This document shows, in pieces, positions 13,508 through 53,725 of a stretch of 64,000 bases of DNA (the stretch's first letter is position 1; each line of letters opens with the position of its first letter). Source of the stretch: a virus; the IMG/VR virus record IMGVR_UViG_3300009177_000030, positions 1-64,000 of that record; one strand, 5' to 3'. Position numbers and translations under genes: made by a program. The notes under the pieces were generated by a model. It was not told the origin of the DNA, did not search any database, and saw only the letters and a list, made by a program, of their open reading frames with translations.

Positions 13508-13543
13508 GGCCGTTAATTTCGGGAATTATATACATGAGTACAG

Positions 13544-13672
13544 TTAGCCTTTCTTTGCAGCACGTTTGGCCCTCTTTTTTTCGCGGCGCTTCGATGCCTT
13601 CGCTTTCTCCTTCGGCTTGTAGTTCAGCACTACATCGGAGATCAGGTCTAAGTCTTTGGGGGTGGTGCTCAT
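13544..13672 (-). CDS. 42-aa basic peptide at IS right end (copy 1)
   Basis: MSTTPKDLDLISDVVLNYKPKEKAKASKRREKKRAKRAAKKG; frame conserved in copy 2. Confidence 0.75.
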   Translation of the reverse strand: MSTTPKDLDLISDVVLNYKPKEKAKASKRREKKRAKRAAKKG

Positions 13673-13818
13673 TTGGATTCCTTCAGGACTTTCCAGTAAC
13701 TCTTATGGCCGCTGTATTCGCAGCCGTCTTTCATCTTCACCCAGAGGCAACCGTTAATCACTTTGGTGACGACACCAACCTCGCCAGTCTTTTTCAGTTG
13801 AACTGTTTTCCCGGTCAT
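13669..13818 (-). CDS. Small hypothetical IS passenger (49 aa)
   Basis: ATGA overlaps at both ends. Confidence 0.6.
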   Translation of the reverse strand: MTGKTVQLKKTGEVGVVTKVINGCLWVKMKDGCEYSGHKSYWKVLKESK

Positions 13819-14552
13819 CCGAACAACTCCAAGTTGCGGGCTATTGGGCCGTTCCACTTGGCGGCGCTGGCATGATTCTCGATATTGTCCCTCAAGAGCA
13901 TGGCTCTGGTTTCCTTACGCTTCGGGATGTAGGAGCCAGTCCATGCGGAGTCTATCCCGATATTTCGCGCCACGTTCGTGCTATCCACACTGGCGTAGGG
14001 AATCACCGAAAATACCTCCGGGTCCATCTGCCGCAAGCCGTGGAGTTTTACGTGCGGTCTACCTTCAGCGTCACAGGCCACGCCCATCGCTTCGGAAATT
14101 CGGCCCCACCACTTTCCCGTTCCGATAGTCACGAACTCGCCAGAGCTGCCGATAGCCACGCGCGACCACTCATCCACCAGCCATTGCAGGGTATCCAGAG
14201 ATTCGTGCATGTGCCAGACCGGGACACTGATCGAATGCGGCAACGGCCAATCCAATATGAGTTGCCTATTCTCCTGTTCGTTGCCGTCGATCACGTCGGG
14301 TATCAGGCACCAGTCAAAAGCCGGATGCCGGTACCAGGTTTCCACGAACGACAGATAGGACGGAACGTCAATAGTTCCCTTACCGGCAGCGAAAATCGGC
14401 CATGCACCGTTATCAATTGCCACGCTATCAGCGACCGCGAAAGCCAGTTCCGTCTGCTGGGGGTTGGCGAATGATACCATCGCGTGCGACCGCTTCCAAC
14501 ACGCAAGGGCGGCTGGCTCAGGAGTTATCGGGCCACCGTGATAGCGAATCAC
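13815..14552 (-). CDS. TGT/DpdA-like TIM-barrel protein (putative base transglycosylase)
   Basis: IDNGAW (cf. DSGGF), IPDVIDG, PVWH, LHGL, SVDSTN motifs; GTG start overlaps upstream stop. Confidence 0.55.
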   Translation of the reverse strand: MIRYHGGPITPEPAALACWKRSHAMVSFANPQQTELAFAVADSVAIDNGAWPIFAAGKGTIDVPSYLSFVETWYRHPAFDWCLIPDVIDGNEQENRQLILDWPLPHSISVPVWHMHESLDTLQWLVDEWSRVAIGSSGEFVTIGTGKWWGRISEAMGVACDAEGRPHVKLHGLRQMDPEVFSVIPYASVDSTNVARNIGIDSAWTGSYIPKRKETRAMLLRDNIENHASAAKWNGPIARNLELFG

Positions 14553-15358
14553 TGGGCACACTCGCAGGGCAGCGCGCTTTCGGTTTCGTAAAGGTTGACC
14601 AGCCGTTTCGCCTCTTTCCAGAACGTGCCAGGCTTCAGCAGTTCCGTAGCCCCTACGCCAGCACGGCGCATAACCTCGAACTTGTCACCGAGTTCCAGCA
14701 ACGAATGGCCCTTGATGATCGTGTAGCCGATTTCCTCTTCAGCCCAGAGTCCACGTTCCCAGACATCGGGCCGCGTGCAGTAGACGACGTACCAGTGCTG
14801 CATTCCGGCCTTCAGGCATCCGGTGCAGTTGGCGTGACGAAACACGCTGTACGTATCCGGCGGCAGGATACCGATCTCAGAGGTAGTTGTTATCGTGCGC
14901 TCCCACTGCGCCAGAGGAAACGCCGTGCGGTAACCCATCACGCCAAGAATCTGAGCACGCCGCTGGATTCGGGCCGGTTCCTTGAGGTCGAATCCGTAGT
15001 AAAGCATGGAAGTCTGGTCGATCCCGTTGGCCTTCAGCCATCCGTAAAACGGCTCCGTCTTCATGCGGTTAGTGCAAAGGGCCGTTCCGTTTCCGACCTT
15101 GAAAGCCCCGGCCTCAACCACTACGTCAAACTGATCCTTTCGGAACCAGTCCGCCATATTCGCATAGGTGACCGGCACGCCGATGTATCCGGCGATCTCG
15201 TTTTTGTACCGCTTAATATCGGCGTCTTCAGAAGTTCCGACGATATCGTGGTTCAGGAGGATCAGGGATTCGTTGCCGAATTTCCGGCTGACTTCGATGG
15301 CGGTAAGTGCCGACGATTCCCCACCCGAATAGCAGATGATGTGAGCATTCTGGATCAT
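14549..15358 (-). CDS. PAPS-reductase/PP-loop family protein
   Basis: YSGGESS PP-loop, CT..MK.EP, GFD..E..R, FPL, HANC.GC.KAG, C-terminal CEC. Confidence 0.8.
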   Translation of the reverse strand: MIQNAHIICYSGGESSALTAIEVSRKFGNESLILLNHDIVGTSEDADIKRYKNEIAGYIGVPVTYANMADWFRKDQFDVVVEAGAFKVGNGTALCTNRMKTEPFYGWLKANGIDQTSMLYYGFDLKEPARIQRRAQILGVMGYRTAFPLAQWERTITTTSEIGILPPDTYSVFRHANCTGCLKAGMQHWYVVYCTRPDVWERGLWAEEEIGYTIIKGHSLLELGDKFEVMRRAGVGATELLKPGTFWKEAKRLVNLYETESALPCECAQ

Positions 15359-16359
15359 GCCGACACCTTCGCAATCAGCCGCTCATACGTCAGGCGCTTG
15401 CCCACGATGGCGTCAATGAACGATTCCAACCGCCGCATAGTGTGGCGCTTCACATCGCCTTCGTTCAGCCGGAACGTGAATTCGTCAATGTATCGGTGCA
15501 GATGCTTTGGAGACACCTGATGGTAAACGCCATGAATACCGCGCTTCAGTACCGCCCAGACCGATTCAATTCCGTTGGTATGGGCTACGCCGTTGACCCA
15601 TTGACCAGCGGAATGGTTGCAGGTTTCGTGCCGGAAGAACAGGCCGTTCAGATCGGTATATGCGCCAAACTCATCGGTGTAGATTTGCGAACCGGCTTCC
15701 ACCGCGCCGTGAATCTCATTCTGGACCGTGCCAGCGTCCGTGGAGTCCACCACCATAGCGACCGTGCGGCCACCAGCGCCCCGCTCCCGCATTCCGAGCA
15801 CGGCAGTCTTTCCGACCGATCCCCTGCCAGCCTTGAGCTTCTTATGCTCGTGTTTGTTCTTTTCCTTGCCGCCTACAAACGTCTCGTCAATTTCGATAAT
15901 GCCGCGAAGTTTGTCGATGTTGTCCGGCGCGGAGCAAGCCTCACGCAACCGGCCCAAAATGAACCACGCGGTTTTCTGTGTGACGCCAATCTCTTTGGCA
16001 AGTTGCATAGAGGAAATCCCCTTGCGGGCCGTGACCACCAGATACTCGATGCTCTTGAATTCCGGGAACGTATTCCATTTCTCTACCCCGTAATTCGCAC
16101 CGTCGAACCGCATCCAGCTATTGCCGTGCCTGAATGAAATCTCGTTATCGGTCATCCAACGAGGCCGAGAATCCGCCCGCAGCATCGTGTCGTTGAAGCA
16201 GCCGCCTTCTGGCGTGTAGAGCCGAACGTGATCCACTGCGATGAGAGCAACAGCCAGAGGATCTGTGGATAGGGGAGCAAACGCACAGACAGAAGAGTAC
16301 TCGGGAGTGATCCAGGGGAAGCCTTCATTGAGGGCGTGGGTTATGCGGGTGACGGTCAT
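15355..16359 (-). pseudogene. 5'-truncated IS1595 transposase fused in frame to about 105 unrelated codons
   Basis: EIDETFVGG, YTDE, NHS, TNGIESVW.VLKR, HL.RY..EF.FR.N present; Zn ribbon absent and replaced upstream of YLVVTARK. Confidence 0.85.
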
Positions 16360-16808
16360 ACCGATAAATCACTGAACAACTTCAACACATTTTCTCTCTT
16401 CGATGAACCTCGCATCGTTCGGGGCGACCGCAGACTGATTACCATCGACGGATATAAATCCACCTTGCGCCCATCCGCTCCACGATGGCGTCGGGTGACC
16501 TGGTATCGCCATTACTTGAGCGCCTCGGTAATCGATAAGGATTTCGCCGCAACGCGAGCAACGTTGGACGCCACCGATCATCTCGCCCGCGATATGGACA
16601 GTTATCATCAGGTTTTCCTCGGCAGGCAACGACAAGCACGTGGCCCAAGCCTTCGACCACACTTCCGGCAACGTCTGTCGCCCTTGGGAATCGCGCGGAC
16701 TGACTTCATTTCTTCGGTCTCCTCGGACAGTTCGCGAAGTGTCCCCTCATTTGCCGCGCTGTCAACTTCGCCCCGCACTTCCAGCCGCAGGGCATTGTGA
16801 CTCCGGGT

Positions 16809-17366
16809 TTAAAGGGCAACGGGAACCCGCTTCAGACCAAAATCCCGCAGTTTGATTTTCGCCATACGTCCATCTGTGTGATGGAAAACCAGACCTTCGA
16901 TATCGCGTAATGACAGCCACTCCCGTAGCCCATCAAAATCTCGGGGAGCCTCCGCGAAAGACTCCAACGCGCTATGGTATTTCAGAACGTGGACAGGATA
17001 ACCCTCTGGGTTCCCCTGAACCTTTGGGCCTAATAGTTCGCAGGTTCCGTCTGTCATTCCCGGCACGAATGCCTCACGGTGCCATCTATCTTCGGGGCCA
17101 TCGCCTACGGGCACCCATCCGATAACCTTCCCAGTTTCTTCGTCGCTAGTGACGCGCTCAAATCCAACAGGGTTGGCGTCCGTCTCTCGAAGTTCCCGAC
17201 GCTTATAAAGTTTCCCGTCTCGGATCATACAGCAAGTACCGTCAACCTTGCGAGTGGCCACGCCTTCGCCAACAGAAACCCATTCACAGCCAGCGTGGAC
17301 CTGATTTATGACTCGACTTCGGTCGCCGTTCCAGTCACGTTCAAACATCGTTGGAATCTTGTTCAC
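16809..17366 (-). CDS. RNA ligase-like nucleotidyltransferase (DUF5565/RLIG1-like)
   Basis: KIPT.F, ATRKVDGTCC (KxDG motif I), ELLGPKVQGNP, EGLVF, MAKIK; GTG start at 17366 likely. Confidence 0.75.
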   Translation of the reverse strand: MNKIPTMFERDWNGDRSRVINQVHAGCEWVSVGEGVATRKVDGTCCMIRDGKLYKRRELRETDANPVGFERVTSDEETGKVIGWVPVGDGPEDRWHREAFVPGMTDGTCELLGPKVQGNPEGYPVHVLKYHSALESFAEAPRDFDGLREWLSLRDIEGLVFHHTDGRMAKIKLRDFGLKRVPVAL

Positions 17367-17598
17367 AACAGTATAGTGACACCATGACGCCGATATTGTC
17401 AACCACTTCGGCCAGCATCCAACAACAACAGCTATTTCGGCTCCACATACTTCCACCTCACCGTCATATCGTTCTTCGGTAGGTACGTCACGTACAAACC
17501 GGGAACGGTCAGATCAGTAGTATCGCCACGGTCTGAGTTCTCGATGACGATCCGCTTTCCGGCAACGCGGCGAAGCTCGTGGATTATAGATTCGGGTT

Positions 17599-18207
17599 TC
17601 AATCTCCGGTCCTCCCAGCGTCCCGCCCATCCAGAACCCCCTGCGCATGGCCGGCCGCTCCGGCCAGTTTCTCCAGCCTCTCAGTCATGCCATTGGTCTG
17701 TTCGGTTACTGTATCCAGTTTGTCAACGACTTCTCGTTGATGGACGTTCGCTGCTGCCAGAATTCGACCATCAGACAGGTACTTCAGAACCGATTGCAGC
17801 GCGACCCCGAGGAATGTCAGGATGCTGGTCAGTAAACCCGCATATATCAGGGCGTTGTTGCTTTCGCTCGTCTTTGCTGCATGGTCCGCGCTGGCCACAG
17901 CGGCGTCTGTCTTGGCCTCAACGCGCACCGATGTTTCTTCCGCTTTGGATACCGCTTGCTCCGCATGGACAACGTTGTGGGCTGCAACTTCACTGGCTGT
18001 TTCGCGTTGCTGTGTGGCTTCGACAGCACGAGCCTTAGCATCAACGTTTGTTTTTGCAACCGCCTTGGTCAGGGCCTCGATTGTCAGTGCCTGGGCTTTT
18101 ACCTGTGCCTGTGCCGCGGCGAGTGCGTCGTCCGTTTTTGCCGCGAACAGAGCCGGAGTTAGAAGCAGGATCGTCAGTGCGGTTTTTATCATCGTGCTCC
18201 CTTTCAT
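17599..18207 (-). CDS. Signal-peptide coiled-coil membrane protein (possible lysis accessory)
   Basis: MIKTALTILLLTPALFA signal, Ala-rich coil, second TM segment. Confidence 0.6.
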   Translation of the reverse strand: MKGSTMIKTALTILLLTPALFAAKTDDALAAAQAQVKAQALTIEALTKAVAKTNVDAKARAVEATQQRETASEVAAHNVVHAEQAVSKAEETSVRVEAKTDAAVASADHAAKTSESNNALIYAGLLTSILTFLGVALQSVLKYLSDGRILAAANVHQREVVDKLDTVTEQTNGMTERLEKLAGAAGHAQGVLDGRDAGRTGD

Positions 18208-18334
18208 GCCCTTCGATCATCTGCAGCGCGAGAGATCTGTAGATAGAGTTCTCCGGCAATGCCGCATAGGTTCTCCACAGGGCGCGGCATAGGCGGCGTT
18301 TAAGGTACACATTGGATTTATTCTACCGCAAATG

Positions 18335-18361
18335 AAAAACCCCGGAATTACTCCCGGGGTT
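18335..18361 (-). terminator. Rho-independent terminator
   Basis: Minus strand CCCCGG-GAGTAATT-CCGGGG-TTTTT. Confidence 0.75.
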
Positions 18362-18409
18362 AGTGAACCAGATGGCCTGATGTCGCCGCCTATTAGGAAT
18401 TTCAGTATA

Positions 18410-18682
18410 TTACACAGTCGGCGCAGTCGCTGTCAGAACTGCCGTTTCCGCATCCAACTTGTCACTCAACGCGTTCAGTGCGGTCGCCGCAGCTTCCACA
18501 TCGGCATCGGTCGAATTAGGCTGAGAGAGTTTATCGGAGATCGCCTTCAGTTCAGCACTGGTGCTGTCATTTAGGCGCGTTACTGCTGCTTTCAAATCGT
18601 CGATGGCTGCCATAATTTTAAAGTTCCTTTGGATAATCCAGCCGATGCCGAGAAGTCCGAGAACGGCCAGAGGTGTGTACAC
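18410..18682 (-). CDS. Ala-rich coiled-coil protein
   Basis: ORF; alternative start at 18613 (MAAIDDLK). Confidence 0.6.
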   Translation of the reverse strand: MYTPLAVLGLLGIGWIIQRNFKIMAAIDDLKAAVTRLNDSTSAELKAISDKLSQPNSTDADVEAAATALNALSDKLDAETAVLTATAPTV

Positions 18683-18703
18683 GAGAATAATGTAGCACTT
18701 TTA

Positions 18704-18901
18704 TCACCGAACGCGAAGCGGGGTGTTCAACGGCCCAAGCAACCCAATCGCCGAGATCAGGTAAAGCACCAGAACGATCACGACGGCCACGTTCAGCAGA
18801 GTTTTGATCGGCTGAGCCATTGGAATGTAGGTATTTACCAAATACATGATTATCCCGACAACGATGAAAAGAACGATCAGACCTAGGAGTGTCATGCCCA
18901 T
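18704..18901 (-). CDS. Small two-TM membrane protein
   Basis: Two hydrophobic helices joined by YIPM..PIK.LLN. Confidence 0.7.
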   Translation of the reverse strand: MGMTLLGLIVLFIVVGIIMYLVNTYIPMAQPIKTLLNVAVVIVLVLYLISAIGLLGPLNTPLRVR

Positions 18902-18956
18902 GATTCAGCACGCTGAGTACCGTTTGGGGTATAATTCGCTCAGGAGATTCCCCCAT

Positions 18957-19133
18957 ATGGCAAGCGGATCGAACACAGTAGACACCCCAGTAACGAAGCC
19001 TCAGTTCACGCCCGGCGATGCGAATCAGTTGCCAACCAAGACCTACCCGAGCAGCACCGGCATGGCAACCAAAGGCTCATCGAATACGATCGATTCGCCG
19101 GCGCCAGCTGGTCCCTACACCAAAAACAAATAA
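18957..19133 (+). CDS. Small Thr/Ser/Pro-rich protein
   Basis: TATAAT at 18930, AGGAG RBS, ATG 18957; internal SNT(V/I)D(T/S)P repeat. Confidence 0.7.
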   Translation: MASGSNTVDTPVTKPQFTPGDANQLPTKTYPSSTGMATKGSSNTIDSPAPAGPYTKNK

Positions 19134-19177
19134 ACCACACGCAAGTGCGGTAATCTAAAGGGCAGAGCAATCGCGCA

Positions 19178-20500
19178 ATGCCCTACTCGCAATTCACCCT
19201 CGATCAGTTAATTGACCAGATGGGTGAGTTGCTTGACGACACCTCATTCGCGTACTTCACGCGCCCCGAAATAACGTTTGCGCTCTACGAGGGATTGACT
19301 GTCTTCGGCTCACTCTGTTCGTACTGGCGCCAGCGTGGGGTCTTCAACATCGACCCCACCGACCCATCTCCGTTCTACGATCTTAGCCAGCAACTCCCGG
19401 CACTACGCCCGCGAACGACGACTCTGGACACCGTAGTAAAAATTATTCAGTATCGTCTCCTAGAATCTCCTACCGGCATAGCAGGCACAGACGGCTCTGG
19501 ACAGGTCTCGATTCTTTCCATTCTTCAGGCAGTAGCGCGCGCTCGGAACAGATTTTGCCTTGATGTTCACTTCCCAAACAATGTCCACCCCAACTATGCG
19601 CCCGTAGCGCCACCAGACGGGCTCGTGTCGTTTCCTCAGTCCTCTGTTTACGTTCACCGCGCCTCATGGAAAGACTCCGGCGGTCAGTGGGCGAACCTCT
19701 GGCGTCAGGATGACTGGGTGTTTGACCACTCTCCCGGCGACTGGCCCACAAACGTAGGCTTTCCTGAAGCGTATTCCGAAGCCGAACTGGCACCGCTCCA
19801 GTTGCAGATTTACCCGAATCCCGCGAATGCTGGCACGCTTGAGGCTGTGACGGTGGACTCGGTGGATATTGATATCACCGACCTCAATAGTCTGATGCAG
19901 TTGCCCAACGAATGGGTCTACGCCGTCACTTGGGCCGCGATAGAAGACTTGATGACCGGCGGCGGACAGATCATAGACGCACTCCGCGGCGAATATGCCT
20001 CGCAGCGCTACAAGCAAGCTGTGGAGTTTGCGAAAGACGCTAGATCCGTAATCAGGCTCACCCTGAACGGAAATCCGCTGGACATCGACACGCTAGCAGC
20101 AATCGATGCCGGAAATCCGTACTGGCGGAATCAGGTCGGTCGACCTCAGATGGCAGGGATCTTGTACGACATCGTGGCGATAAACCCGGGCATCATGGAT
20201 CAACAGTATGCCATTGGGGCGGATCTTGTGGTGCCAGCGCCGTTGCCAACCGGAGGGGAATTCGTTCAGATCGGCGAAGAGAGCCTGGAAGATATCCTGG
20301 ACTACGCTTCGCACGTCCTGATGTTCAAATGCGGCGGCAAGGAGTTTCAGGATACGTTTGGAATGTACGACAACTTTATGCAGGCGGTATCTCAGCGGAA
20401 GGGTGTGAATGCGGCGAAGATTAAGTATTTCCAGCCGCTATTTGGGGCTTGGCAGCGGGAGCAGGTTCAGAGGCCGGATGCTGTGGCGGTGAAGGGATAG
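19178..20500 (+). CDS. Second adaptor/tail tubular protein A-like
   Basis: L..L......LLDD....FT..EI...L.EG N-terminus, G.P.AY, LQIYP.P; precedes nozzle. Confidence 0.65.
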   Translation: MPYSQFTLDQLIDQMGELLDDTSFAYFTRPEITFALYEGLTVFGSLCSYWRQRGVFNIDPTDPSPFYDLSQQLPALRPRTTTLDTVVKIIQYRLLESPTGIAGTDGSGQVSILSILQAVARARNRFCLDVHFPNNVHPNYAPVAPPDGLVSFPQSSVYVHRASWKDSGGQWANLWRQDDWVFDHSPGDWPTNVGFPEAYSEAELAPLQLQIYPNPANAGTLEAVTVDSVDIDITDLNSLMQLPNEWVYAVTWAAIEDLMTGGGQIIDALRGEYASQRYKQAVEFAKDARSVIRLTLNGNPLDIDTLAAIDAGNPYWRNQVGRPQMAGILYDIVAINPGIMDQQYAIGADLVVPAPLPTGGEFVQIGEESLEDILDYASHVLMFKCGGKEFQDTFGMYDNFMQAVSQRKGVNAAKIKYFQPLFGAWQREQVQRPDAVAVKG

Positions 20501-21142
20501 ATGCCAAGAAAATATCATTTCGCCATCATCGTTGATGGAGGCAAACCTATCGGAATTCACTCCGTAAAGAGCAAGGAATCCTTCATAGCCGAACTCAGAG
20601 TGAAAGGGCACGATGTTCGCGTCGAGCCGTATACGGCACCATCTCACCAGAGAAAGCCGGGATCGACTATAAGGACAAAGCGAAGGTTTAAAAACGACGA
20701 GGATTTGAAGCAGTTCTTGCTGGACAATATGATCCAGCAAGATAACGGATGCCTTGTCTGGACGCGCGGATGCAATCGCACTGGCTATGGGGTCATCGGC
20801 TATAAATACGATGATCATTTGGTTCACAGACTCTTTTGGTCTTTATCTGGTAGAGACTTGCCAGATAATATGGAACTTCTCCATTCCTGCGACAATCCAC
20901 CATGCTGTAATTTAGACCATCTTAAGCTTGGTACCCAACAGGACAACATGTTGGATCGGGATTTAAAAAATCGTGTAGCCCACGGCGAGACACACTGCCG
21001 CGCAAAATTGGCTGACTCGCAAGTTTCAGAAATAAAAGAAATGGCCAGGTCTGGGCAGCCCCTAATTTTAATAGCTAAGACTTTCGGCGTGAATCCATCT
21101 CATATTTCTAGGCTCGTATCTGGCAAAAGGAGATCACGCTAA
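20501..21142 (+). CDS. HNH homing endonuclease with C-terminal HTH
   Basis: C.VW, GYG, HR, LHSCDNPPCCN.DHL..GT..DN, AKL. Confidence 0.9.
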   Translation: MPRKYHFAIIVDGGKPIGIHSVKSKESFIAELRVKGHDVRVEPYTAPSHQRKPGSTIRTKRRFKNDEDLKQFLLDNMIQQDNGCLVWTRGCNRTGYGVIGYKYDDHLVHRLFWSLSGRDLPDNMELLHSCDNPPCCNLDHLKLGTQQDNMLDRDLKNRVAHGETHCRAKLADSQVSEIKEMARSGQPLILIAKTFGVNPSHISRLVSGKRRSR

Positions 21143-30673: not shown

Positions 30674-32320
30674 ATGCCTAAGCAGATTCAATTCGAAGGT
30701 GCCACGCACGAATTCCCGGATGACTTCACGCAGGCTGACATCGCGAAAGCCCTGTCTGGCGCACATGGGGCAACCGCTACGGCCACAGCACCACGTCCCA
30801 GTTCACGACTGCCAATGAATCTGGGGCACATCTATACTCCTCCACTACAGGAGTCTGGCTTCTTCAGCGAGAGCGGTTTCGGTCCCGGCACTTTAGGCAA
30901 AGGCATTGGCGAGGTAATTCAGCCCGGTAAGCGGTTGGCCGGGCTGCATGATATTTTCGTGGGCGCAGGAGAGACCGCTTCGCCCGGTGTCCTTCCGTCT
31001 TTAGTGGCTGCGCCTGTCGCCACAATCGGAACTCTCGCTGCCGCTGGATTAGGTGGTGCTGTTGGGAAAGTCGGCTCTATGATAGCCGGTGCGAGTCCCG
31101 AGGTGTCTGATCTTGCCGGAGACGCCGGAAGCGTCCTCGGCGGTGGCATCGCGTCATCCCCCAAAATCCAGGCATTCACCAAAGGCGCTATCAAGGCCAT
31201 TCCCGGCGCAATCTCTGAGGGTGGTGGTTATCCCACCCTCTATGGCATCCTGCATGGCAAGACATCACTTCCTGCGGTTCTAGGGACACTGGCAGGCCAT
31301 GCATTTGGCCACCCCTACGAAGGTGGCGCATTGGGCGTCCTTGGTGGCGCTACCCCGACCGCTATACGTGGTGGACTGGCCGCTGCGGAGAACGCTCCAT
31401 GGCTTCCTCAACTGTTCCGTGAGCCCATCGTGCGGCCACCGGCGGGATGGCAGCAAGCCGGGGTAGAACCCACTCCGAGCGGAATTTCTCGACGAAGTGG
31501 TTCGGCCACGCCTATACTAGCCACTGAAACTCCTACAGGTCGCAAGCCAGGCGGCATCCAAAACCAGACCGCTATTGAGCCCATCGTGCGGCCACCGGCG
31601 GCACGTTTTGAGCCGACTCCACGGCCAGCACCGGATGCTACACCGATACCAGCCACCGAAACCCCCACCGGTCGCAAGCCAGGCGGCATCCAAAACCAGA
31701 CCACTATCGAACCCATCGTGCGGCCACCGGCGGCAGAACTTGCCGGCATTGATCCGAACGATCTGGATGCAGCAGCATCGTTGCTGACGAACAACAAAAA
31801 GATGTTCAAAGATCTGACCGGCGCGAATCGTCAGACGGCGATCAATCAGGCCAGGGGATTCTCACAACAGAGGATAGCGTTGCAGGGTAAGCCAGCCGCC
31901 GCCATGCAGCCCGTAGCCACGTCTGCTCCAGCCACCACCTACATGCCAGACCTGGAGGCTAAGGTGATAGCCGCACCGATTGAGCCACTAGCCTCCGGTG
32001 CGCCGATGCAGCCGATTGGCAACAACATCAACTACCCGGGCCATATCCACGAGCAACTCCACGGAGCCGGTCCTGAAGTAGCCATCACTCACGCATCGAA
32101 CGCCAGCGCCAAGGATCTCGCTGTGGCAACGCGCCTGAAGGCGGCCGGAATTACACCAGCAGCAGTGGATGCGATGACCGATGCGGAACTGAACCAGCAC
32201 TATAAGGCGCTCGGCTATAAGCCGCTTGGATCAGACTTCAAACCAGGCAAGCGCGTTGGGCGTCCGGCAGATGTGGGGCGCCTGCACTTGAGAACGGTAT
32301 TGGGGGATCTATGGAAATAG
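30674..32320 (+). CDS. Internal virion/DNA ejection protein
   Basis: EFPDD.T..DI..AL N-terminus, Gly/Ala hydrophobic stretches. Confidence 0.55.
   Translation: MPKQIQFEGATHEFPDDFTQADIAKALSGAHGATATATAPRPSSRLPMNLGHIYTPPLQESGFFSESGFGPGTLGKGIGEVIQPGKRLAGLHDIFVGAGETASPGVLPSLVAAPVATIGTLAAAGLGGAVGKVGSMIAGASPEVSDLAGDAGSVLGGGIASSPKIQAFTKGAIKAIPGAISEGGGYPTLYGILHGKTSLPAVLGTLAGHAFGHPYEGGALGVLGGATPTAIRGGLAAAENAPWLPQLFREPIVRPPAGWQQAGVEPTPSGISRRSGSATPILATETPTGRKPGGIQNQTAIEPIVRPPAARFEPTPRPAPDATPIPATETPTGRKPGGIQNQTTIEPIVRPPAAELAGIDPNDLDAAASLLTNNKKMFKDLTGANRQTAINQARGFSQQRIALQGKPAAAMQPVATSAPATTYMPDLEAKVIAAPIEPLASGAPMQPIGNNINYPGHIHEQLHGAGPEVAITHASNASAKDLAVATRLKAAGITPAAVDAMTDAELNQHYKALGYKPLGSDFKPGKRVGRPADVGRLHLRTVLGDLWK
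31421..31737 (+). repeat. Intragenic repeat, 132-bp period (ATETPTGRKPGGIQNQTxIEPIVRPPAA x2; EPIVRPPA x3)
   Basis: Direct comparison of 31519.. with 31651.. Confidence 0.9.
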
Positions 32321-43353: not shown

Positions 43354-43752
43354 ATGACCCGCACCAAACACCGCTTCCCAGGCATCCCGCTCTGGCTGGT
43401 CCTCGGAATAATTCTTCTGACCACGGTAGCCTTTTCTGGCGGCCAGGGAATTACAACGATCACGACCGCCGGCACTCCCGTTCAGCTTTATTCCAGCAAC
43501 CCAGGCACGAAGGCTGTTGGCTGTACGATCACCGCCGCCTCCACGAATACCGGAACGATTTGGGTTGGGTTTAGTTCAGCGGTTTCGGCCGCCAATAAAA
43601 TAGGAACACCCCTTGGTCCTCCTTTGACGGCAGGCCAGCCCGGTGCCAGCTACGCCTGCATGCCTGTAGGAAATACCGCTACGTTCTCTCTCGGGAGCAT
43701 ATTTCTGGATGCCACGGTGTCTGGGGATAAGGCGAGTTTCTCGTGGTTTTAA
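43354..43752 (+). CDS. Signal-peptide/anchor beta-sandwich virion-like protein
   Basis: Hydrophobic N-terminus; I.A...NTG.IWVG...VSA..G..L decoration-like motif; TATAAT 7 nt upstream. Confidence 0.7.
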   Translation: MTRTKHRFPGIPLWLVLGIILLTTVAFSGGQGITTITTAGTPVQLYSSNPGTKAVGCTITAASTNTGTIWVGFSSAVSAANKIGTPLGPPLTAGQPGASYACMPVGNTATFSLGSIFLDATVSGDKASFSWF

Positions 43753-46588: not shown

Positions 46589-46678
46589 AGGTCAAAAGAA
46601 ATGAAAACCGCAATCATGCTGTGCCGTCTCGCCTGCTGGTGTGTGGCTGCTGCTGTATTTGAGTTCAGGAGACCGTAA

Positions 46679-47029
46679 ATGCCCGATCTCGTAGGCGGAC
46701 TTGGCGACAAACTGACAGCGATCTCCGACAAGTTGGTGGCGGCGATACCGGGAATCGAGAAGCCAATACTGGATGAGTTGCACGCCGATATTGCATCGCT
46801 CGTTCAAGCTGAAAAGGACGGCATTACCCAGATCGGCGAAACCGAAAAGCAGGTCATCGACTACGCTCTGCAAAAGGCCGCGGTGCTCCTGAATTCACAG
46901 CGGGCCGCTCTGCTCAACGATATTGATCGGCGCTTCGTGGCGCTCGGTGCGATTCTTGAGGCACTCGGCCAAGCGATGCAGAAGAATGGCACAGTGACAT
47001 CCAATGACCCGCTACCGCCGCAATCCTGA
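46679..47029 (+). CDS. Helical hypothetical protein
   Basis: AGGAG RBS. Confidence 0.6.
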   Translation: MPDLVGGLGDKLTAISDKLVAAIPGIEKPILDELHADIASLVQAEKDGITQIGETEKQVIDYALQKAAVLLNSQRAALLNDIDRRFVALGAILEALGQAMQKNGTVTSNDPLPPQS

Positions 47030-47139
47030 CTCGACTGCCCTGATGGTCATCGTGGCGCTCGGGCTGTTCGCTATCGGGATGGCGGTTGTGATCCGCTGAA
47101 AGTATGATATTCTGAAATTCGCAAGGGTACGAGCCACTG

Positions 47140-47189
47140 AAGCCGTCTGCCGATCTGGACCATCGGAACAACAGACGGTTTCTTTTTTT
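47140..47189 (+). terminator. Terminator-like hairpin
   Basis: AAGCCGTCTG...CAGACGGTTT then T7. Confidence 0.55.
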
Positions 47190-47695
47190 GATACAATGAT
47201 ATTGGCTCAGTATGTGGCGTCCACCACAAACCGAATTCCCATCCACATACCTTAGCCGTGCTCTGCCCTTCGATTCTCCCAGTATGGGAGCGGTTTGGCT
47301 CCACAGGTAAAGCCTATGTGTCCCCGAAAAAACAACCCCTGTTCAAAGACTACGGAAATAAGCGCCGATAACGAAGAGAGTCAGCGAAACCCAAGCAACG
47401 GAGCGGTAGTCGATCCGCTATTCACGCCTACGTCTTGGTCCATCCGCATCCTCGATTACTAAGCTCGTCGAACTTCGTTAAGAGTCTGATTGTCGAAAGG
47501 GAAGAAAAGGGAAAACAACTGCAAACCCTATAGGAATGCGGAGGGAAGGCGTGTTGTCTTTAAGGATTCTCAACGCATCCCCTTCGGATACCGCAGCCCC
47601 TCCAGCCAGTGCTTGAACAGGTTCCAGTACAACCATAGAGCGAATTTCATAATCAACTCATCGGCTGAAAATGATATTCTTTTAGAGAGGAAACC

Positions 47696-48214
47696 ATGAA
47701 ACTCGCACTTCTCGCCGCATTTCTCGCCCTGCCACTGGCCGCACAGCCCGCATTCCCTGATCTGGCTATCGGCGGTGGACTTCAATACTCGCAGCAGTCG
47801 CAACCGCAATCTCAGGGGCTGGCGTTCGTTGCCAAGCTCGCCGATAAGACGCACGGCATCTACAACTACAACCTCCTGCGAATCACGGCGGTGACCTTCG
47901 ACAAGAAGACGCACGCGATCGGAGTCCAAAAGCAGGCGGAAACGGGGGTGGCGATCTACATCAATTCGTTCAACCTCGGGCCGTCCCTGGGTACGTGGGA
48001 TTGCTTCACCGCGGTCACTGGTGGCGCTGCTTTGGTCGGCGGCAGTGTTGGGGCCTCCGCAAGCGGCACGCCATTCTGTGCGCGTCCTCTGGGCAAAGGC
48101 TGGTATCTGGATGTGTTCGGTGGGGTGTCGTATTCTGCGCTGGCGAATGGCGGCGGATCGGCGGGTGTCTCGTACCCGGCTGGACTGGCGTTTCATTGGG
48201 GAGGAAAGCTGTAA
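47696..48214 (+). CDS. Secreted small beta-barrel-like protein
   Basis: GAGGA RBS, MKLALLAAFLALPLAA-Q signal, alternating strands, aromatic C-terminal strand. Confidence 0.65.
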   Translation: MKLALLAAFLALPLAAQPAFPDLAIGGGLQYSQQSQPQSQGLAFVAKLADKTHGIYNYNLLRITAVTFDKKTHAIGVQKQAETGVAIYINSFNLGPSLGTWDCFTAVTGGAALVGGSVGASASGTPFCARPLGKGWYLDVFGGVSYSALANGGGSAGVSYPAGLAFHWGGKL

Positions 48215-48553
48215 TGGATAATCCACGCGGCCTAGCAGATTTTCAGGTACGTGACATTCTCTACGCGGATCGGTGCCCAGTTTGTGAAACCGGAAACCTT
48301 GATACGGGATGGGAATGCAACTCATGCAATGTGGACTGTAAGCCACTGGTAGACCGACTGTCACCGTTGGCCCCATCTCCGACAGCGCACTATCCACATC
48401 CAGGCTATCGCGATCACATCATGTAGCGGCATCCTGAACAAGTTTGGCGGCGATATAGCCGCACACGACGCGGGGCGAAGGCAATCTGTGACAGGGTGCG
48501 CCGGGAAATAGGCGAGTCAACGTGGTTAGAGTGGCAGTCACCCCATTTAATAT

Positions 48554-48584
48554 CGGGTCTGCGGGAAACCGTAGGCCCGTTTTT
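48554..48584 (+). terminator. Rho-independent terminator
   Basis: CGGGTCTGCGG-GAAA-CCGTAGGCCCG-TTTTT. Confidence 0.8.
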
Positions 48585-48646
48585 ACGTTATGATGGGATT
48601 CAGGCGGCTTCGGGATGAAGTGATCCGATGACCGAACCTTGAGGTA

Positions 48647-48916
48647 GTGAAAATGGTACGAGCGAAGTTTGTAGTTGAAAGTTACGAAACCCGCAAAAGC
48701 AATACCCGCGACCCTGAATCCGAAGAACTCCGAACACTGAAACTGGTTGCGGTTTCTGATGGCAGCGAAGAAAACAAGAAGTTCTTCCGCTGGACCCCAA
48801 ACGGCACCATCAGTATCGGTGTGCTGAACCCTGAAGCATGGAAGCAATTGGAACTCGGCAAGAGTTACTACGTTGACTTCACGGAAGTGATTGACACTTC
48901 GGTGCCCAATGGATAG
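48647..48916 (+). CDS. Conserved hypothetical phage protein
   Basis: VRAKF...EEN..F...TP.G.I....NP.A....ELGK.YYVDF pattern. Confidence 0.75.
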   Translation: MKMVRAKFVVESYETRKSNTRDPESEELRTLKLVAVSDGSEENKKFFRWTPNGTISIGVLNPEAWKQLELGKSYYVDFTEVIDTSVPNG

Positions 48917-49120
48917 CCCGGTAATTCACGGAGATCCATTCACACCGGAACGTCTGAAGGAGTTAATGGCCCAGGTTCGCGACTTCGGCAAAGAATCTAA
49001 TATCACTCCGCACGCGAGATTTATTGACCATGCGAAAGAGTCTGGATTTAGCGATTCGCAAGCGGAATTTCTCTGGGGTCTGCATCTGATGCCACCGATT
49101 CGGCTTTTCTGATTCACTTG

Positions 49121-49152
49121 AGCCGGGAATCCTTAACGGGGTTTCCGGCTTT
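49121..49152 (+). terminator. Terminator-like hairpin
   Basis: AGCCGGGAATCC...GGGTTTCCGGCT-TT. Confidence 0.6.
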
Positions 49153-49180
49153 CGTGCTTTTACGGTAGAATAATCACATT

Positions 49181-49390
49181 ATGAAGTCTCTCAGCCAAGA
49201 CGCCACCCGCATGTGCTTCGGCTTTCTCCTGCTGACAATTCTGGTAGGCCTGGCGATTGCCATCGCTCTCGGACACGTTGAGGAGCGCACCAGCTACGGC
49301 CTGATGCCCCTGTTGATGGGAGTCTCGAATCTGGCGACTCAGTTTGCATCGTGGGCATTCAGCAAGCCGAAATCGAAGGATGAAGAATGA
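49181..49390 (+). CDS. Holin-like two-TM protein
   Basis: Two TM segments and a charged C-terminus. Confidence 0.55.
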   Translation: MKSLSQDATRMCFGFLLLTILVGLAIAIALGHVEERTSYGLMPLLMGVSNLATQFASWAFSKPKSKDEE

Positions 49391-49719
49391 AAACCACAAC
49401 GCAGATCCTGAACAATCTCTACAGCCTGGTGTGCGTCTTGTGCGCTGTATGGGCAGAGATGCCACCCGCCGCGCTTGACGTGCTCCCCGCACCGTGGAAG
49501 CATTACGTTACGGTCGGAGCTATGGCTGCGATGTGGATCAAGGGCCACTATAACCTGTTTATTACACCGAATGGCGCGAAACTCCAGCAGTTCGTCAACG
49601 TTGGATCTCAGCCGGGAGTTGTGAGTTACGCCAGCGGCCAGGTCGCGCAAGAGGCTCCAGGTATTCCGCCGGTTCCAACCGAGGTGAAGGTTTCGGCTGA
49701 TCCCAAGGTGGCAGAGTGA
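49387..49719 (+). CDS. Holin-like membrane protein
   Basis: Two hydrophobic segments, ATGA coupling. Confidence 0.5.
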   Translation: MKTTTQILNNLYSLVCVLCAVWAEMPPAALDVLPAPWKHYVTVGAMAAMWIKGHYNLFITPNGAKLQQFVNVGSQPGVVSYASGQVAQEAPGIPPVPTEVKVSADPKVAE

Positions 49720-49958
49720 AAATGTCCGAAGTCAAACCGGGAATGCGGTTGCGTTCAACGGTTTCGTATCATGGCGCGCCCGATGAATTCGCCAACGTCA
49801 CGGAGCTGACTGATAAGGGATTCCGTTACTCGTTGGATGCTGCCTATTCAATGATCCCGCGCTGGGGAATGTCTGTGAATAAAGACGGGCACGAGCATTT
49901 CGGGCTGTTGGGCGATGCGCTTTTTGAACTGGCTGATCCAAAGGTAGTGACAGAATGA
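49716..49958 (+). CDS. Hypothetical protein flanked by junction repeats
   Basis: GTGA/ATGA overlaps; ends ADPKVVTE like the upstream gene's ADPKVAE. Confidence 0.6.
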   Translation: MKMSEVKPGMRLRSTVSYHGAPDEFANVTELTDKGFRYSLDAAYSMIPRWGMSVNKDGHEHFGLLGDALFELADPKVVTE

Positions 49959-50457
49959 AAATTCCAAATTTTTGCGGTTTTTGCTGGCTCCTGATCCCAC
50001 TCGAAGAATTCACCAGACCGGGCGAAGGACTTCACGTTACCGGGCACGTTTGTCTGGCTGATCGTGGGGCCAATGTTCCGTTCGATGACGATTACCATAA
50101 ACGAGCATTCGCGTCATGACCGGCGCAATCTCCCCAATCGAAACGCTCTTGCGCTCGATCTCCAATCTGGACGTGGAAAAGTCGCTGGACCATTCGACGA
50201 AATCGGAACTTCTTAAGCGGGCGGATGATCTCGAATCCATCGCTAAGGGAATTCGGGACTACGCGGGGCAACCGAATCCCCCCGCAGTTAACGATCCTTC
50301 TTGACTGGTCGATCTTTCCGCACTCGCCGGCGCATCTGCGAAACCCAACCTGTTTTGGCTAATTTAGGCGGATCAGGTGGCGGCGTGGCAAGTCTGGCTA
50401 TGTTCGTTTGATTGGGCTTGTAGATGCGCACGTTCGGGCACGGCTTAAATTCTTCGC

Positions 50458-51201
50458 TCACTTCGTCTCCTTGTCTACTGGGGAGTCTGTCCACTGTCCC
50501 GCTGGGATGCGCCATCGCTTTGATAATTCCCGCATAGGGAGATTCTTGATATATGAATCGCAATCCGACTCGCGACTTGTGACGAGAACCGCAAATCCGC
50601 CTTCAAATACGCTCCACTCCCACTCCGTTTGCCGCTCAACTGGAGGGGCCTGCTTCATGGCGACACCGTCGATGATTGCCATGTCGTCATCGTTGAACAT
50701 CGTCAACTTAACCAGAGCATCCATGTTCTCCCATAACTTGGAAATAAGGAGGTATGCGGCAATCAACTTGGCCTCAATAACGGAAATGTAGGGTTTGCGC
50801 CGATCCGATTCCGCTGCTTTGGACTCTGCCGCATCTGCACGCCATGCTTCCGCTTGTGCCTGATTCCGAGCTTCGTCTCTTTCCCGCTCCGCAACTTCCA
50901 GTCGCTCGCGTTCGGCGGCTAGCTCGGCCTGTGCTTTATCGATCATTTCCCTGAACGAGTGCAACTCGCAGGCGAATCCGTTTTCCCGGTCTCCGTGGGC
51001 GCAACCATAGATTCGATGTGGGTCCATCGGGTCCGACTGGCAGATTTGATGCGCCCCGTCGAGTACAAACGGATTTCCGCCGCAGTTCGCCCACTTCGTG
51101 ACGGTTGCCACCTTTCCCTGTGCTGCTTGCAGCGCAGCGCGGAGGGCGGCATTCTCTCGGGCCAGCCCATCCATTATTTCCACGTCAGTATTTTCACTCA
51201 C
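50458..51201 (-). CDS. Mosaic coiled-coil hypothetical protein
   Basis: AAGGAG RBS, coupled. Confidence 0.6.
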   Translation of the reverse strand: MSENTDVEIMDGLARENAALRAALQAAQGKVATVTKWANCGGNPFVLDGAHQICQSDPMDPHRIYGCAHGDRENGFACELHSFREMIDKAQAELAAERERLEVAERERDEARNQAQAEAWRADAAESKAAESDRRKPYISVIEAKLIAAYLLISKLWENMDALVKLTMFNDDDMAIIDGVAMKQAPPVERQTEWEWSVFEGGFAVLVTSRESDCDSYIKNLPMRELSKRWRIPAGQWTDSPVDKETK

Positions 51202-52023
51202 TTGTTTTCTCCTTGCCCTCGGCGCGGCGGATGGCTTCTATGGATCTCGCTCGGCGGCACGTAAAGCAGATGCAGGTTCCGAAACACACAGTTTTTTGGC
51301 AGGTTCCAGCAAGACGCGCAAAATCCGAAATCTCATCTTTCAGCGCCGCCAGCAGTTCCGCTTTCTGCTTACGTATGGCCTGAAGCTCCAAGAGCGCGTT
51401 CAGATTGTCTTCGCCTGCAACACGAGCCGCCGCGACTGCGCAATACTTCCTAACGTACTCCCGCTTGTTGGCTATCAACTCCTCCAGCCGCGCGTCGCTG
51501 ATGGGTTCACTGGGCATTGGCGATCCTTTTGCGGGCTTCTTTCCAGTCAACCCACTCGCGTCGGGCGGTCAACAGTTTTGCATAAACATCAATCGTCAGC
51601 ATAGCTAGAAGACCGAACAGGAACAGAAATAATCCGGCCAGCATCGGCCCCACAAGCCACTCGTGTCGTGTTAGAAACTCTGTGAATAATTTACTCATCT
51701 CTTTCCTCCCCATAAGGCTGCGTGTGCGGAGCGGGTCACTGAATCGACCGCCTGAGTTCCGAAATCTCCATGTGCCGCTTGTCATAAAACTCCGCGCACA
51801 TCTCCAGAAAGTCTTCGCGCGACATCTTCAGTATGTTGGCACTCGTGTTCGACGCCAGCGACATCAGGACCGTAATCGTGTCGAGAATATTCAGCCCAGG
51901 CAGAATGGCTAGCACTTTCGTCTGAACCGCTTCCATCTGTAAATCACGTTCGCTTTTCAAGTTCGTCCTCTCCCGGCAGTATGCCGGATTACCTAACAAT
52001 GGGAATTATATACATGAGTACAG

Positions 52024-52152
52024 TTAGCCTTTCTTTGCAGCACGTTTGGCCCTCTTTTTTTCGCGGCGCTTCGATGCCTTCTGTTTGTCCTTCGGCTTGT
52101 AGTTCAGGACTACATCGGAGATCAGGTCTAACTCTTTTGGGGTGGTTGTCAT
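52024..52152 (-). CDS. 42-aa basic peptide at IS right end (copy 2)
   Basis: MTTTPKELDLISDVVLNYKPKDKQKASKRREKKRAKRAAKKG. Confidence 0.75.
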   Translation of the reverse strand: MTTTPKELDLISDVVLNYKPKDKQKASKRREKKRAKRAAKKG

Positions 52153-52946
52153 ATAAAACTCAAAACCTCTTGAGAAAGTCTCTTTGCTGCAATCTCACAG
52201 TAGCGTTCCTCGATTTCGATTCCAATGGCGGGACGCCCTGTTTCCTTGGCCGCTCGGAGAGTTGTACCACTGCCAGAAAACGGATCTACTACCAGACCTG
52301 GCTTTGTCGTTTCCATGGCACGCAGCGGCAGTCCGATTGGAAACGGAGCCGGGTGCTCTGTGCCGGATTCTTGCGGTACGTACCAAACATCCCCGACTCC
52401 GCTTGCGCCCTTATCGCGGAGCCTGAAGGCAGGTTTTGCCAGAATCATAATCCACTCGTGGGTGGGAACGTAGTGCGTGGGCGCGAAGTTTATTCCACCG
52501 GCCCGTTGCCAGATGACAATCTGCCTAAGTGGCAACCCTGGATTCAAGGACGTAGGGAGCCACACTTCGCAACTCTGCGCGCGTGGTTTGTGGTTATAGT
52601 AAATCGCGCCTTCCTCTGTCAATTGCGAGTAGCAGAGCGTAAGTATGTCGCGTTGCCACGCTTCATACTCCGGCCATGGCATAGCGTCGGTGCAGACGCC
52701 GTAACCGTCCGCGAGTGCCCCACCAGACCATTTACCGCACCCGCCGCGCGCCTTCCCCATCCTCGCGTCATCGGAGTAATGACCGTGATTGCGAACGAAT
52801 TTAGAGGCAAACCCACCGCCCGTGGTGACTCCAAGATTGTACGGCGGCGACGTGAATATCAAATCCGCCGGCGGCAGTGTTGGGAGAACCTCACGACAGT
52901 CTCCGTGGTAGATCGTGATATCGCCATGCTGGTAATACGGCTTCAC
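52149..52946 (-). CDS. DNA amino-methyltransferase (beta class, N4-C/N6-A)
   Basis: TSPPY catalytic motif, HPAPFP, DPFSGSGTT, GIE. Confidence 0.93.
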   Translation of the reverse strand: MKPYYQHGDITIYHGDCREVLPTLPPADLIFTSPPYNLGVTTGGGFASKFVRNHGHYSDDARMGKARGGCGKWSGGALADGYGVCTDAMPWPEYEAWQRDILTLCYSQLTEEGAIYYNHKPRAQSCEVWLPTSLNPGLPLRQIVIWQRAGGINFAPTHYVPTHEWIMILAKPAFRLRDKGASGVGDVWYVPQESGTEHPAPFPIGLPLRAMETTKPGLVVDPFSGSGTTLRAAKETGRPAIGIEIEERYCEIAAKRLSQEVLSFI

Positions 52947-53725
52947 GCGATCACCTTCGCAATCAACTGCTCATATGTGAGGCGCTTCCCGACAATGGCG
53001 TCGATGAACGACTCCAGCCGCCTCATGGTGTGGCGCTTCACATCGCCCTCGTTCAGCCGGAACGTGAATTCGTCAACGTATCGGTGCAGATGCTTCGGAG
53101 ACACCTGATGGTAAACGCCATGAATGCCACGCTTCAGAACCGCCCAGACCGATTCAATCGAGTTGGTGTTAGCCAGACCCCGCGCATACTCCCCGGCGCT
53201 GTGGTTGACGCTCTCGTGCGAATAGAAAAGGCCGTCCAGATCGTTAAACACCATGTGGTCATCGGTGTAAAGCTGGCTACCCACTTCCACGTTGGCGTGA
53301 ATCTCGCCGTGGATAAAGTCCAGCGACCGTTGCTCCACGACTTGCGCCCGCGTTCGACCGCCACGCTCCCGCATTCCGAGCACGGCGACCTTGCCGACCG
53401 CGCCGCGTCCGGCCTTCAGTTTCTTCGATTCGTGCTTGTTCTTTTCCTTGCCGCCTACAAACGTCTCATCAATTTCGATGATGCCGCGAAGTTTGTCGAT
53501 GTTGTCAGGGCTGGAGCACGCCTCACGCAACCGGCCCAGAATGAACCATGCAGTTTTCTGCGTGACTCCGATCTCCTTCGCCAGTTGCATCGAACTGATA
53601 CCCTTGCGTGCCGTGACAACAAGATACATGGCGTAGACCCATTTGTGAAGCGGAACCTTAGACCGCTCGAACACCGTTCCGGTGCGCACCGTAAAATCGA
53701 AGTTGCAGGCATTGCAGCGGAAAGC
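52943..53725 (-). pseudogene. 5'-truncated IS1595 transposase
   Basis: Only the second CxxC of the Zn ribbon remains; HTH and catalytic motifs intact. Confidence 0.85.

Follow-up and report, generated by a model that had tools for sequence, protein, structure and literature searches.

The window analysed here, a stretch of 64,000 nucleotides, is the first 64 kb of the 94,720-bp IMG/VR virus record IMGVR_UViG_3300009177_000030, which CheckV rates as 100% complete and in which genes for a portal protein, a major head protein, an RNA ligase and an HNH endonuclease provide a phage context. Two of its loci, copy 1 (13521-16045) and copy 2 (52001-53725), were presented in a preliminary description of the window as IS1595-type insertion sequences (IS) in which DNA-modification genes occupy a precise, exchangeable slot, with the transposase gene on one side and, on the other, a 152-bp right end common to both loci. 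The open reading frames (ORFs) and the blocks shared between the loci bear out this layout and its coordinates: each locus holds an IS1595-type transposase gene, passenger genes and the 152-bp end, all on the - strand.

Copy 1 is bounded on its right by a 23-bp terminal inverted repeat at 13521..13543 (GGGAATTATATACATGAGTACAG as read inward on the + strand), which forms the outer boundary of the element and whose sequence is also that of both ends of the intact elements L083 and L086 (L numbers denote loci of related sequences). Next to the repeat lies a small core gene of 42 aa (13544..13672), whose product combines an LDxIxDxVLxY(K/R)P motif with a tail rich in Lys and Arg and which is matched by a hidden Markov model (HMM) of the small gene with E 1.3e-19. 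Three cargo genes adjoin it, namely a 49-aa ORF (13669..13818) with an ATGA overlap at each end and a weak match to phrog_1690 (2e-4), a TGT/DpdA-like gene of 245 aa with a GTG start (13815..14552; phrog_887, 3.1e-60), and a PP-loop/PAPS-reductase-like gene of 269 aa (14549..15358; phrog_424, 2.8e-22). The TGT/DpdA-like protein has no match in Pfam (TGT), NCBIfam or the PDB sequences, and a check for preQ0 supply found neither QueC nor FolE in the phage genome. The sole solved-structure relative of the PP-loop protein is PDB 21fy_C, 'PptA' (E 2.3e-11), a name under which the literature yielded unrelated proteins only; the same PP-loop/PAPS-reductase-like class is cargo in L007, L008, L053 and L075. 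The transposase ORF as a whole spans 15355..16359 and is composite. Its part at 15355..16047 is a transposase remnant that corresponds to intact transposases from about residue 86 to the end, with the DDE motifs kept and the zinc ribbon gone, and the foreign 5' part at 16048..16359 consists of the first ~105 codons of an unrelated phage gene of ~345 aa, in frame with the remnant.

Copy 2 ends in the same repeat sequence (52001..52023), followed by its own 42-aa small gene (52024..52152; small-gene HMM, E 9.1e-21) and by a single cargo gene for an N6/N4 (amino) DNA methyltransferase of 265 aa (52149..52946; PF01555, 4.5e-28; phrog_67, 3.5e-56). The transposase ORF occupies 52943..53689, with a GTG start at 53689, and the remnant can be followed over 52943..53745, the frame being open back to a stop at 53740; the second half of the zinc ribbon alone is kept (FRCNACNF, the second CxxC). 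In place of the left end there is a block on the + strand (53728..54486) that holds two ORFs of 73 and 64 aa together with a gene for an HNH endonuclease (54016-54486; phrog_338, 3e-10), and the 73-aa ORF begins exactly at the breakpoint where the IS homology of copy 2 stops. A homing-type insertion of this HNH block may have removed the left end. All six junctions of the two copies are 4-bp ATGA or GTGA overlaps, exactly as had been listed. Opposite the transposase and cargo genes there are long antisense ORFs at 14402-15520 (+, 372 aa) and 51981-53108 (+, 375 aa), in all likelihood spurious, as their common start region is the reverse reading of the conserved small gene.

A repeat finder aligns the two copies in three blocks, 15777-16045 with 53359-53627 (84% identity), 15355-15579 with 52943-53167 (89%) and 13521-13672 with 52001-52152 (95%), the last of which shows no differences over its outer 81 bp. 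This '152-bp module' is the 42-aa gene followed directly by the 23-bp terminal inverted repeat, and the outer-end 23-mer occurs twice in the window where 0.00 occurrences are expected by chance. The transposases share 81% protein identity. Their assignment to the IS1595 family stands: PF12762 identifies both as IS1595/ISXO2-type DDE transposases (1.7e-47 for copy 1 and 5.6e-45 for copy 2), and NF033547 scores 189.6 and 204.9 bits, respectively, compared with 207.7 bits for the intact protein of L008 and a cut-off of 75.

An exact scan of IMG/VR with the 23-mer found it as a perfect inverted pair in two contigs, L083 and L086. The L083 unit, 1882 bp long, runs from repeat to repeat through a 311-aa zinc-ribbon transposase gene, a 247-aa PP-loop gene and a 42-aa gene, and that of L086 (2124 bp) contains a 314-aa transposase gene, a 268-aa PP-loop gene, a 55-aa ORF and a 41-aa gene. 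Perfect 8-bp duplications flank both units and, because the 23-mer is paired in this way and accompanied by target duplications, it is the terminal inverted repeat of a real IS, with the 42-aa gene inside. Transposase-based scans then recovered at least 135 viral stretches, of which 80 were fetched, and 56 loci in a collection with one genome per species, mostly from soil and peat metagenome-assembled genomes (MAGs) of Acidobacteriota and Alphaproteobacteria. Units were delimited by a search for the repeat pattern and by a sequence-blind search for an 8-bp duplication plus inverted ends, which together recovered 120 distinct units bounded by repeats, some 105 of which include a transposase gene, as well as 109 transposase and 72 small-gene matches. 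Intact elements have repeats of 23-26 bp starting GGGAATTATATA, a transposase of ~305-315 aa that joins an N-terminal zinc ribbon to the DDE core, in most cases a gene for a basic protein of ~42 aa that begins in an ATGA overlap with the transposase stop codon, and at least one, sometimes several, passenger genes; GGGAATTAT ends are found in 64 of 104 duplication-bounded units. Perfect 8-bp duplications at 85 independent sites are 82% A+T, against flanks of 57% G+C. One identical 1561-bp element sits at three different duplications (L042, L043 and L044), and a sponge symbiont holds at least eight copies of one 4.2-kb element. Long ORFs span the reconstructed empty site in 67/85 cases compared with 187/201 random controls, a measure that is non-discriminating in G+C-rich DNA.

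Outside the element the fetched loci have no DNA in common with this phage and almost no protein similarity to it, so the carriers are unrelated. No close relative was found in isolated phages or PLSDB plasmids, where the best transposase identities were 37% and 46%, respectively, and a DNA search of INPHARED returned a single weak match. The preliminary description had proposed delivery between phages, and many unrelated viral contigs do carry the lineage; it is not confined to phages, however, given the copies in MAGs.

Set against these relatives, both copies of the window are incomplete. Homology to intact elements begins at ~16047 in copy 1 and at ~53727-53745 in copy 2 by alignment, so both lack the left end, and an HMM built from the intact relatives (~305 positions) starts to match only at position 85 in copy 1 and 52 in copy 2. 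Where L083 and L086 have complete ORFs with the two CxxC pairs of the zinc ribbon, copy 1 has neither and copy 2 the second alone; where relatives have perfect pairs of 23-26-bp repeats, both loci have a right repeat only. An HMM and repeat scan of the whole genome returned two right repeats, two small genes, two transposase remnants and nothing more, in agreement with the core search of the window; no left inverted repeat was found in the window or the entire 94.7-kb genome, nor any intact copy of the element in that genome. Over residues 1-105, the copy 1 ORF has 77-90% identity with the N-terminal parts of proteins of 334-361 aa without a transposase domain (84% with residues 1-103 of the protein P0005), and the genome lacks the remainder of the fused phage gene. 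The join is in frame and the two partners have only TCGA in common there, which points to illegitimate deletion and not to an assembler join. The relatives provide 118 full-length transposase matches, and left-truncated copies such as L068 are rare. The candidate empty sites, L145 (a relative of the flanking 416-aa structural gene) and L146 (an intact homologue of the fused gene), are not syntenic with this genome, so the ancestral insertion sites could not be rebuilt.

Our reading, to which we give a probability of roughly 0.85, is that both loci are immobile, left-truncated relics of two separately acquired ISNwi1-like IS1595 elements of the passenger-carrying kind known as transporter IS (tIS). 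Since the genome contains no left end and no intact transposase, neither copy can move, and the preliminary view of the window copies as a vehicle is not supported. That both are instead working elements which still carry cargo from phage to phage would be in keeping with their intact right ends, small genes, DDE motifs and cargo, with their open frames and with terminal-branch changes that are mainly synonymous. It is largely refuted, and retains very little probability, in view of the missing left repeat, the partial or complete loss of the zinc ribbon and the lack of an intact copy to act in trans, all the more so by contrast with the 118 relatives that have full-length transposase matches.

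For the separate acquisition of the two relics there is the transposase tree, in which they fall in different clades, one that joins copy 1 to L008 and L012 and one that joins copy 2 to L003 and L005. A single element duplicated within the phage, one cargo then being swapped by recombination, would account for the common orientation of the loci and for right-end modules that are 95% identical, with 81 bp exact. We regard it as quite improbable, as the transposases are only 81% identical and lie in separate clades beside elements of unrelated contigs, the breakpoints differ, and later gene conversion better accounts for the similar right ends. The greater likeness of the right ends than of the transposases fits gene conversion within the genome.

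Several points weigh against the interpretation of the loci as relics of this subgroup. The ISNwi1 label itself is tentative and depends on the ISfinder end consensus 'ggnnatTAT', which GGGAATTAT appears to fit; the subgroup also has an 8-bp duplication and, in its '+' members, passenger genes. Independent contigs do not cover the left junctions (~16047 and ~53740), although such a gap proves nothing. Lastly, parsimony on triplets places 25 synonymous against 2 non-synonymous codon changes on the terminal branch of copy 1 and 20-26 against 3-5 on that of copy 2. The latter two points each lend something to a rival explanation.

The gap in coverage bears on whether repeated IS sequence has led to a chimeric assembly of the loci or of their truncated left junctions, and it is also true that the 81-bp exact repeat breaks Logan contigs at 13521-13571. 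Yet an independent Logan contig of 2312 nt, assembled from a rhizosphere metagenome that is probably the source run, reaches from 13572 to 15883 with a single difference and takes in all four cargo junctions of copy 1. The 4 bp common to both sides of the copy 1 breakpoint are far under any assembler word length and the join is in frame, and within the transposase gene the copies are too diverged (84-89%) for mis-joins, which makes a chimera exceedingly improbable. Contigs of four runs from three studies stop exactly at 13521 and then enter differing flanks, which fits a mobile boundary.

The codon changes bear on a further possibility, that the truncated transposases have been domesticated and that a DDE core, in copy 1 with a new N-terminus, serves the phage, e.g. 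in DNA processing or in regulation of the cargo. Ratios of 25:2 and 20:3 synonymous to non-synonymous changes, the intact D, D and E motifs, the in-frame fusion of copy 1 and the existence of a similar left-truncated copy in L068 all argue in this direction. On the other hand, the breakpoints of the two copies differ and copy 2 has gained no new N-terminal domain, the homologues of the copy 1 N-terminus (334-361 aa) have no Pfam domain on record, one search found no like fusion protein, and recent truncations would give the same pattern of selection. Domestication is thus unlikely in our estimation. Intact sister transposases show the same synonymous-rich pattern. Strong purifying selection is unexpected for dead genes, which leaves two alternatives, truncations of recent date or remnants that remain under constraint; we favour a constraint that would act through translational coupling to the cargo.

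The history of the relics may then have been as follows. An intact element would have inserted at an A/T-rich site and duplicated 8 bp, as shown for its relatives. In copy 1, a deletion would have brought codon ~105 of a phage gene into frame with codon ~86 of the transposase gene, and copy 2 would have been cut inside its zinc ribbon, beside the HNH-endonuclease block. What was left over is predicted to be a translationally coupled operon of transposase remnant, then cargo, then small gene, whose cargo would be expressed in infection and modify the phage DNA against host restriction, the putative modifiers being the N6/N4 methyltransferase of copy 2 and the PP-loop enzyme and DpdA-like transglycosylase of copy 1. 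The open frame of the remnant would have been retained since ribosomes must pass through it to reach the coupled cargo. Across the lineage, the turnover of cargo probably reflects recombination between elements that have the 3' end of the transposase gene in common, together with the small gene and the repeats.

Outside the window, at genome positions 71283-72449, there is a C5 cytosine methyltransferase gene whose protein has 45-54% identity to the C5 methyltransferases that L003 and L069 carry. No transposase gene, small gene or repeat is found nearby, and it may be older, fully domesticated cargo. Elsewhere in the window, at 31505-31735, two 99-nt direct repeats that are 89% identical and 132 bp apart lie within a 548-aa ORF (30674-32320).

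Same-strand ORF chains tile 83-99% of each related element, and the passenger genes lie inside the inverted repeats and move with them, as is characteristic of a tIS. The position of the cargo varies. Among 106 transposase-bearing elements, 32 have cargo upstream of the transposase gene, which is then followed by the small gene; 24 have transposase gene, small gene and then cargo; 10 have the arrangement of the window, the cargo being placed after the transposase gene and before the small gene; in 31 the cargo is downstream and no small gene was detected; and 7 are mixed, mostly with upstream cargo plus a second position. In both window copies the cargo lies between the transposase remnant and the right repeat. 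The native junction of the two core genes is ATGA, with a 4-bp overlap in 49/58 cases, and cargo of the window type is bracketed by two such overlaps, which occur at 19/44 transposase-to-cargo and 9/12 cargo-to-small-gene junctions. At the other positions the same overlap is found in 5/26 small-gene-to-cargo and 11/38 cargo-to-transposase junctions, the rest having gaps of 0-100 bp or more. The fixed, exchangeable slot of the preliminary description therefore survives in part: many different cargos do occupy the space between the transposase and 42-aa genes with overlaps, but because overlaps bracket cargo at that location only, a 'precise slot' is true of one in three positions, and the other junctions are mostly ragged. 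Elements without cargo, or with ragged junctions, had been named as evidence against such a slot, and here the outcome is divided, as 104/106 elements hold at least one extra ORF of at least 60 aa and 2 are without, while junctions outside the transposase/small-gene slot are mostly ragged.

As to what is carried, the identifiable cargo consists mostly of DNA methyltransferases, PAPS-reductase-like PP-loop proteins and restriction enzymes. A Pfam tally of 79 downstream cargo proteins includes N6_N4 methyltransferases (9), C5 methyltransferases (4) and PAPS_reduct proteins (3), further methyltransferase families (N6_Mtase, Eco57I, Dam, D12 and MmeI), the restriction enzymes XamI (2), XcyI, EcoO109I, ThaI and MvaI/BcnI, type I S subunits (2) and an HsdR N-terminal domain, together with other domains such as NADAR, ASCH, DUF551 (2), P63C and DUF1508. 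With PHROGs, methyltransferases were also recognised in L046 and L040, as were PAPS-reductase-like proteins in L008 and the window. Individual scans of viral cargo identified orphan methyltransferases in L003, L005, L064, L065, L066, L069 and L073, PP-loop proteins in L053 and L075 and a NADAR protein in L071. Whole restriction-modification pairs are cargo of MAG copies, and one viral contig (L080:5723-7236) also has a complete pair, an N6/N4 methyltransferase with an MvaI/BcnI restriction enzyme; by elimination from the tallies, the remaining restriction-enzyme matches presumably sit in MAG elements.

Not every cargo gene acts on DNA. Roughly half of the downstream cargo has no recognisable function, 38/41 upstream cargo proteins have no Pfam match, and an all-against-all BLASTP comparison of 120 cargo proteins resolved them into 88 singletons, nearly all unannotated, and 9 clusters. 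The proposed anti-restriction role of the cargo is hence upheld only for its annotated part, where modification and restriction genes dominate, because so much of the remainder, including nearly all upstream cargo, is without recognisable function. One recurrent unannotated family of 195-291 aa follows the small gene in both viral and MAG elements (L052, L063, L098, L099, L102, L104 and L134); it shows predicted membrane helices along with a coiled coil, and four of its residues are invariant. The search that the preliminary description had recommended, with the right end and the transposase as queries and with cargo, junctions and carriers tabulated, has yielded many different cargos on viral and MAG carriers, with modification and restriction genes prevailing among those that can be identified.

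The small basic protein is a second core component of these elements. Its family comprises 62 distinct sequences with the motif P-x-x-L-D-x-I-x-D-x-V-L-x-Y-R/K-P-K followed by a Lys/Arg-rich tail, and the gene is coding, since third codon positions vary most (entropies of 1.12/1.03/1.63 for the three positions). No family annotation was found for it, and the ESM Atlas gave hypothetical clusters only. In L109 (4912-6600) and L111, a 562-aa methyltransferase bears the motif as an N-terminal fusion, and its gene is followed in the same element by a 304-aa gene. The conserved ATGA coupling of the small gene to the transposase gene suggests, with low confidence, an accessory role in transposition.

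The exchange of cargo is seen between close neighbours in the transposase tree, which differ in both architecture and cargo. Copy 1 and L008 have transposases of 98.7% protein identity, and their PP-loop cargos, although both are assigned to phrog_424, show no BLASTP similarity (E 0.56). The N6/N4 methyltransferases of copy 2 and its sister L005 are alike at motif regions only. Likewise, the transposases of L069, L071 and L073 are 95-97% identical and their cargos are, respectively, a C5 methyltransferase, a NADAR protein (L071:5742-6362) and the small gene with a C5-methyltransferase-like protein. Among element pairs with at least 85% transposase identity, 117/133 differ in gene-length signature, a count that includes some ORF-calling noise.

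The DpdA-like gene of copy 1 offers a view of capture. It has at least 184 viral relatives, and in the 80 that were fetched no transposase gene, small gene, repeat or relative of the window PP-loop gene occurs within 4 kb (0/80); nor did any homologue of the 49-aa ORF adjoin DpdA-like genes elsewhere. Compared with its nearest relative, in L147 (75% DNA identity), homology runs from start codon to stop codon only, and the A/T-rich intergenic DNA of L147 is not present beside the copy 1 gene. Because the homology is confined to start-to-stop, the element can be said to hold a common phage gene cut back to its ORF.

Taken further, these observations would allow the lineage to be seen as a dedicated shuttle in the arms race between phages and bacteria, with three cargo positions and a two-gene core of the transposase and a small basic protein co-translated with it, which moves restriction-modification systems between bacterial chromosomes and orphan modification or counter-defence genes (methyltransferases, PP-loop, DpdA-like and NADAR proteins) between unrelated phages. 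Under the same proposal, the ~90 unannotated cargo families would be new defence or anti-defence genes, and phages would lock in cargo by beheading the element, its frame being kept as a conduit for translation. We put this forward tentatively, as an idea with somewhat less than an even chance of being correct. Several consequences are of interest all the same. The lineage provides a concrete, transposition-based route for the known fast turnover of phage methyltransferases, and suggests a possible path by which host restriction-modification genes enter phage genomes. Its ~88 singleton cargo families form a guilt-by-association catalogue that can be screened for defence and anti-defence activity, and the two beheaded copies indicate that a phage can retain cargo while the vehicle is disabled.

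Insertion sequences have been regarded as rare in phages and poorly tolerated there (PMC3429520; PMC11602168), and the presence of one tIS lineage in at least 135 viral contigs, along with 56 loci of the one-genome-per-species collection, stands out against this supposed rarity. In the freely accessible literature searched, ISfinder not included, no description of this phage-borne lineage or of its small gene was found. MITEs, the miniature inverted-repeat type of transposable element, have been reported in phages of Acidobacteriae (PMC11602168). Short transposase-less units of 221-634 bp with the same ends as the present elements were also seen (L069:7585-7869, 285 bp; L084:1583-2003; L087:857-1490, 634 bp; and L096:5078-5298), two of the four with perfect 8-bp duplications. 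They resemble MITE or mobile insertion cassette (MIC) derivatives of IS in being short, repeat-bounded and transposase-less, with 8-bp duplications, beside full elements (L069, L087), and may be the MITEs of that report.

The present lineage can be compared with several known systems. Integron cassettes are similar by analogy, in that a conserved platform holds highly variable and tightly packed cargo. Here, by contrast, there are three cargo positions, DDE transposition moves the unit in its entirety and the junctions are simple overlaps of start and stop codons; no integrase-type gene occurs in the ORF chains of any element, attC and attI not having been specifically searched for. Bellas et al. 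(2020, PMC7468147) found orphan DNA methyltransferases to be the commonest flexible genes of phage metagenomic islands and named no vehicle for them. In both cases methyltransferases come and go among similar phages, and here the carrier is transposition-based. Restriction-modification units with inverted repeats and 8-bp duplications, once with a transposase-like gene, were described by Furuta, Abe and Kobayashi (2010, PMC2853133), and the MAG copies and viral L080 are like them in holding restriction-modification genes inside inverted repeats with an 8-bp duplication; the units they described were individual cases from bacteria, without a defined lineage of transposases, whereas one lineage here carries many systems, and orphan methyltransferases in phages.

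The closest likeness is to the passenger-carrying members of the IS1595 family, the transporter IS, which were defined by Siguier, Gagnevin and Chandler (2009) as cited in PMC3129680 and which take in the ISNwi1/ISNwi1+ subgroup of ISfinder. MTnSag1 and tISCpe8 are characterised transporter IS in which an IS1595-type transposase goes together with repeats of 25 bp, 8-bp duplications and a circular intermediate (PMC5704250). An IS1595-type DDE transposase, repeats of ~25 bp, the 8-bp duplication and passengers inside the repeats are common to these and to the elements considered here. The latter differ in their presence on many viral contigs, in a conserved second core gene for a basic protein of ~42 aa and, at the two window loci, in left truncation, and their cargo is made up of DNA-modification and restriction genes in place of the antibiotic resistance or mobilisation genes of tIS. 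The kind of element is therefore already known, as IS1595 transporter IS of which some are tied to restriction-modification; what is new is its residence in phages, its two-gene core and its cargo of DNA-modification genes.

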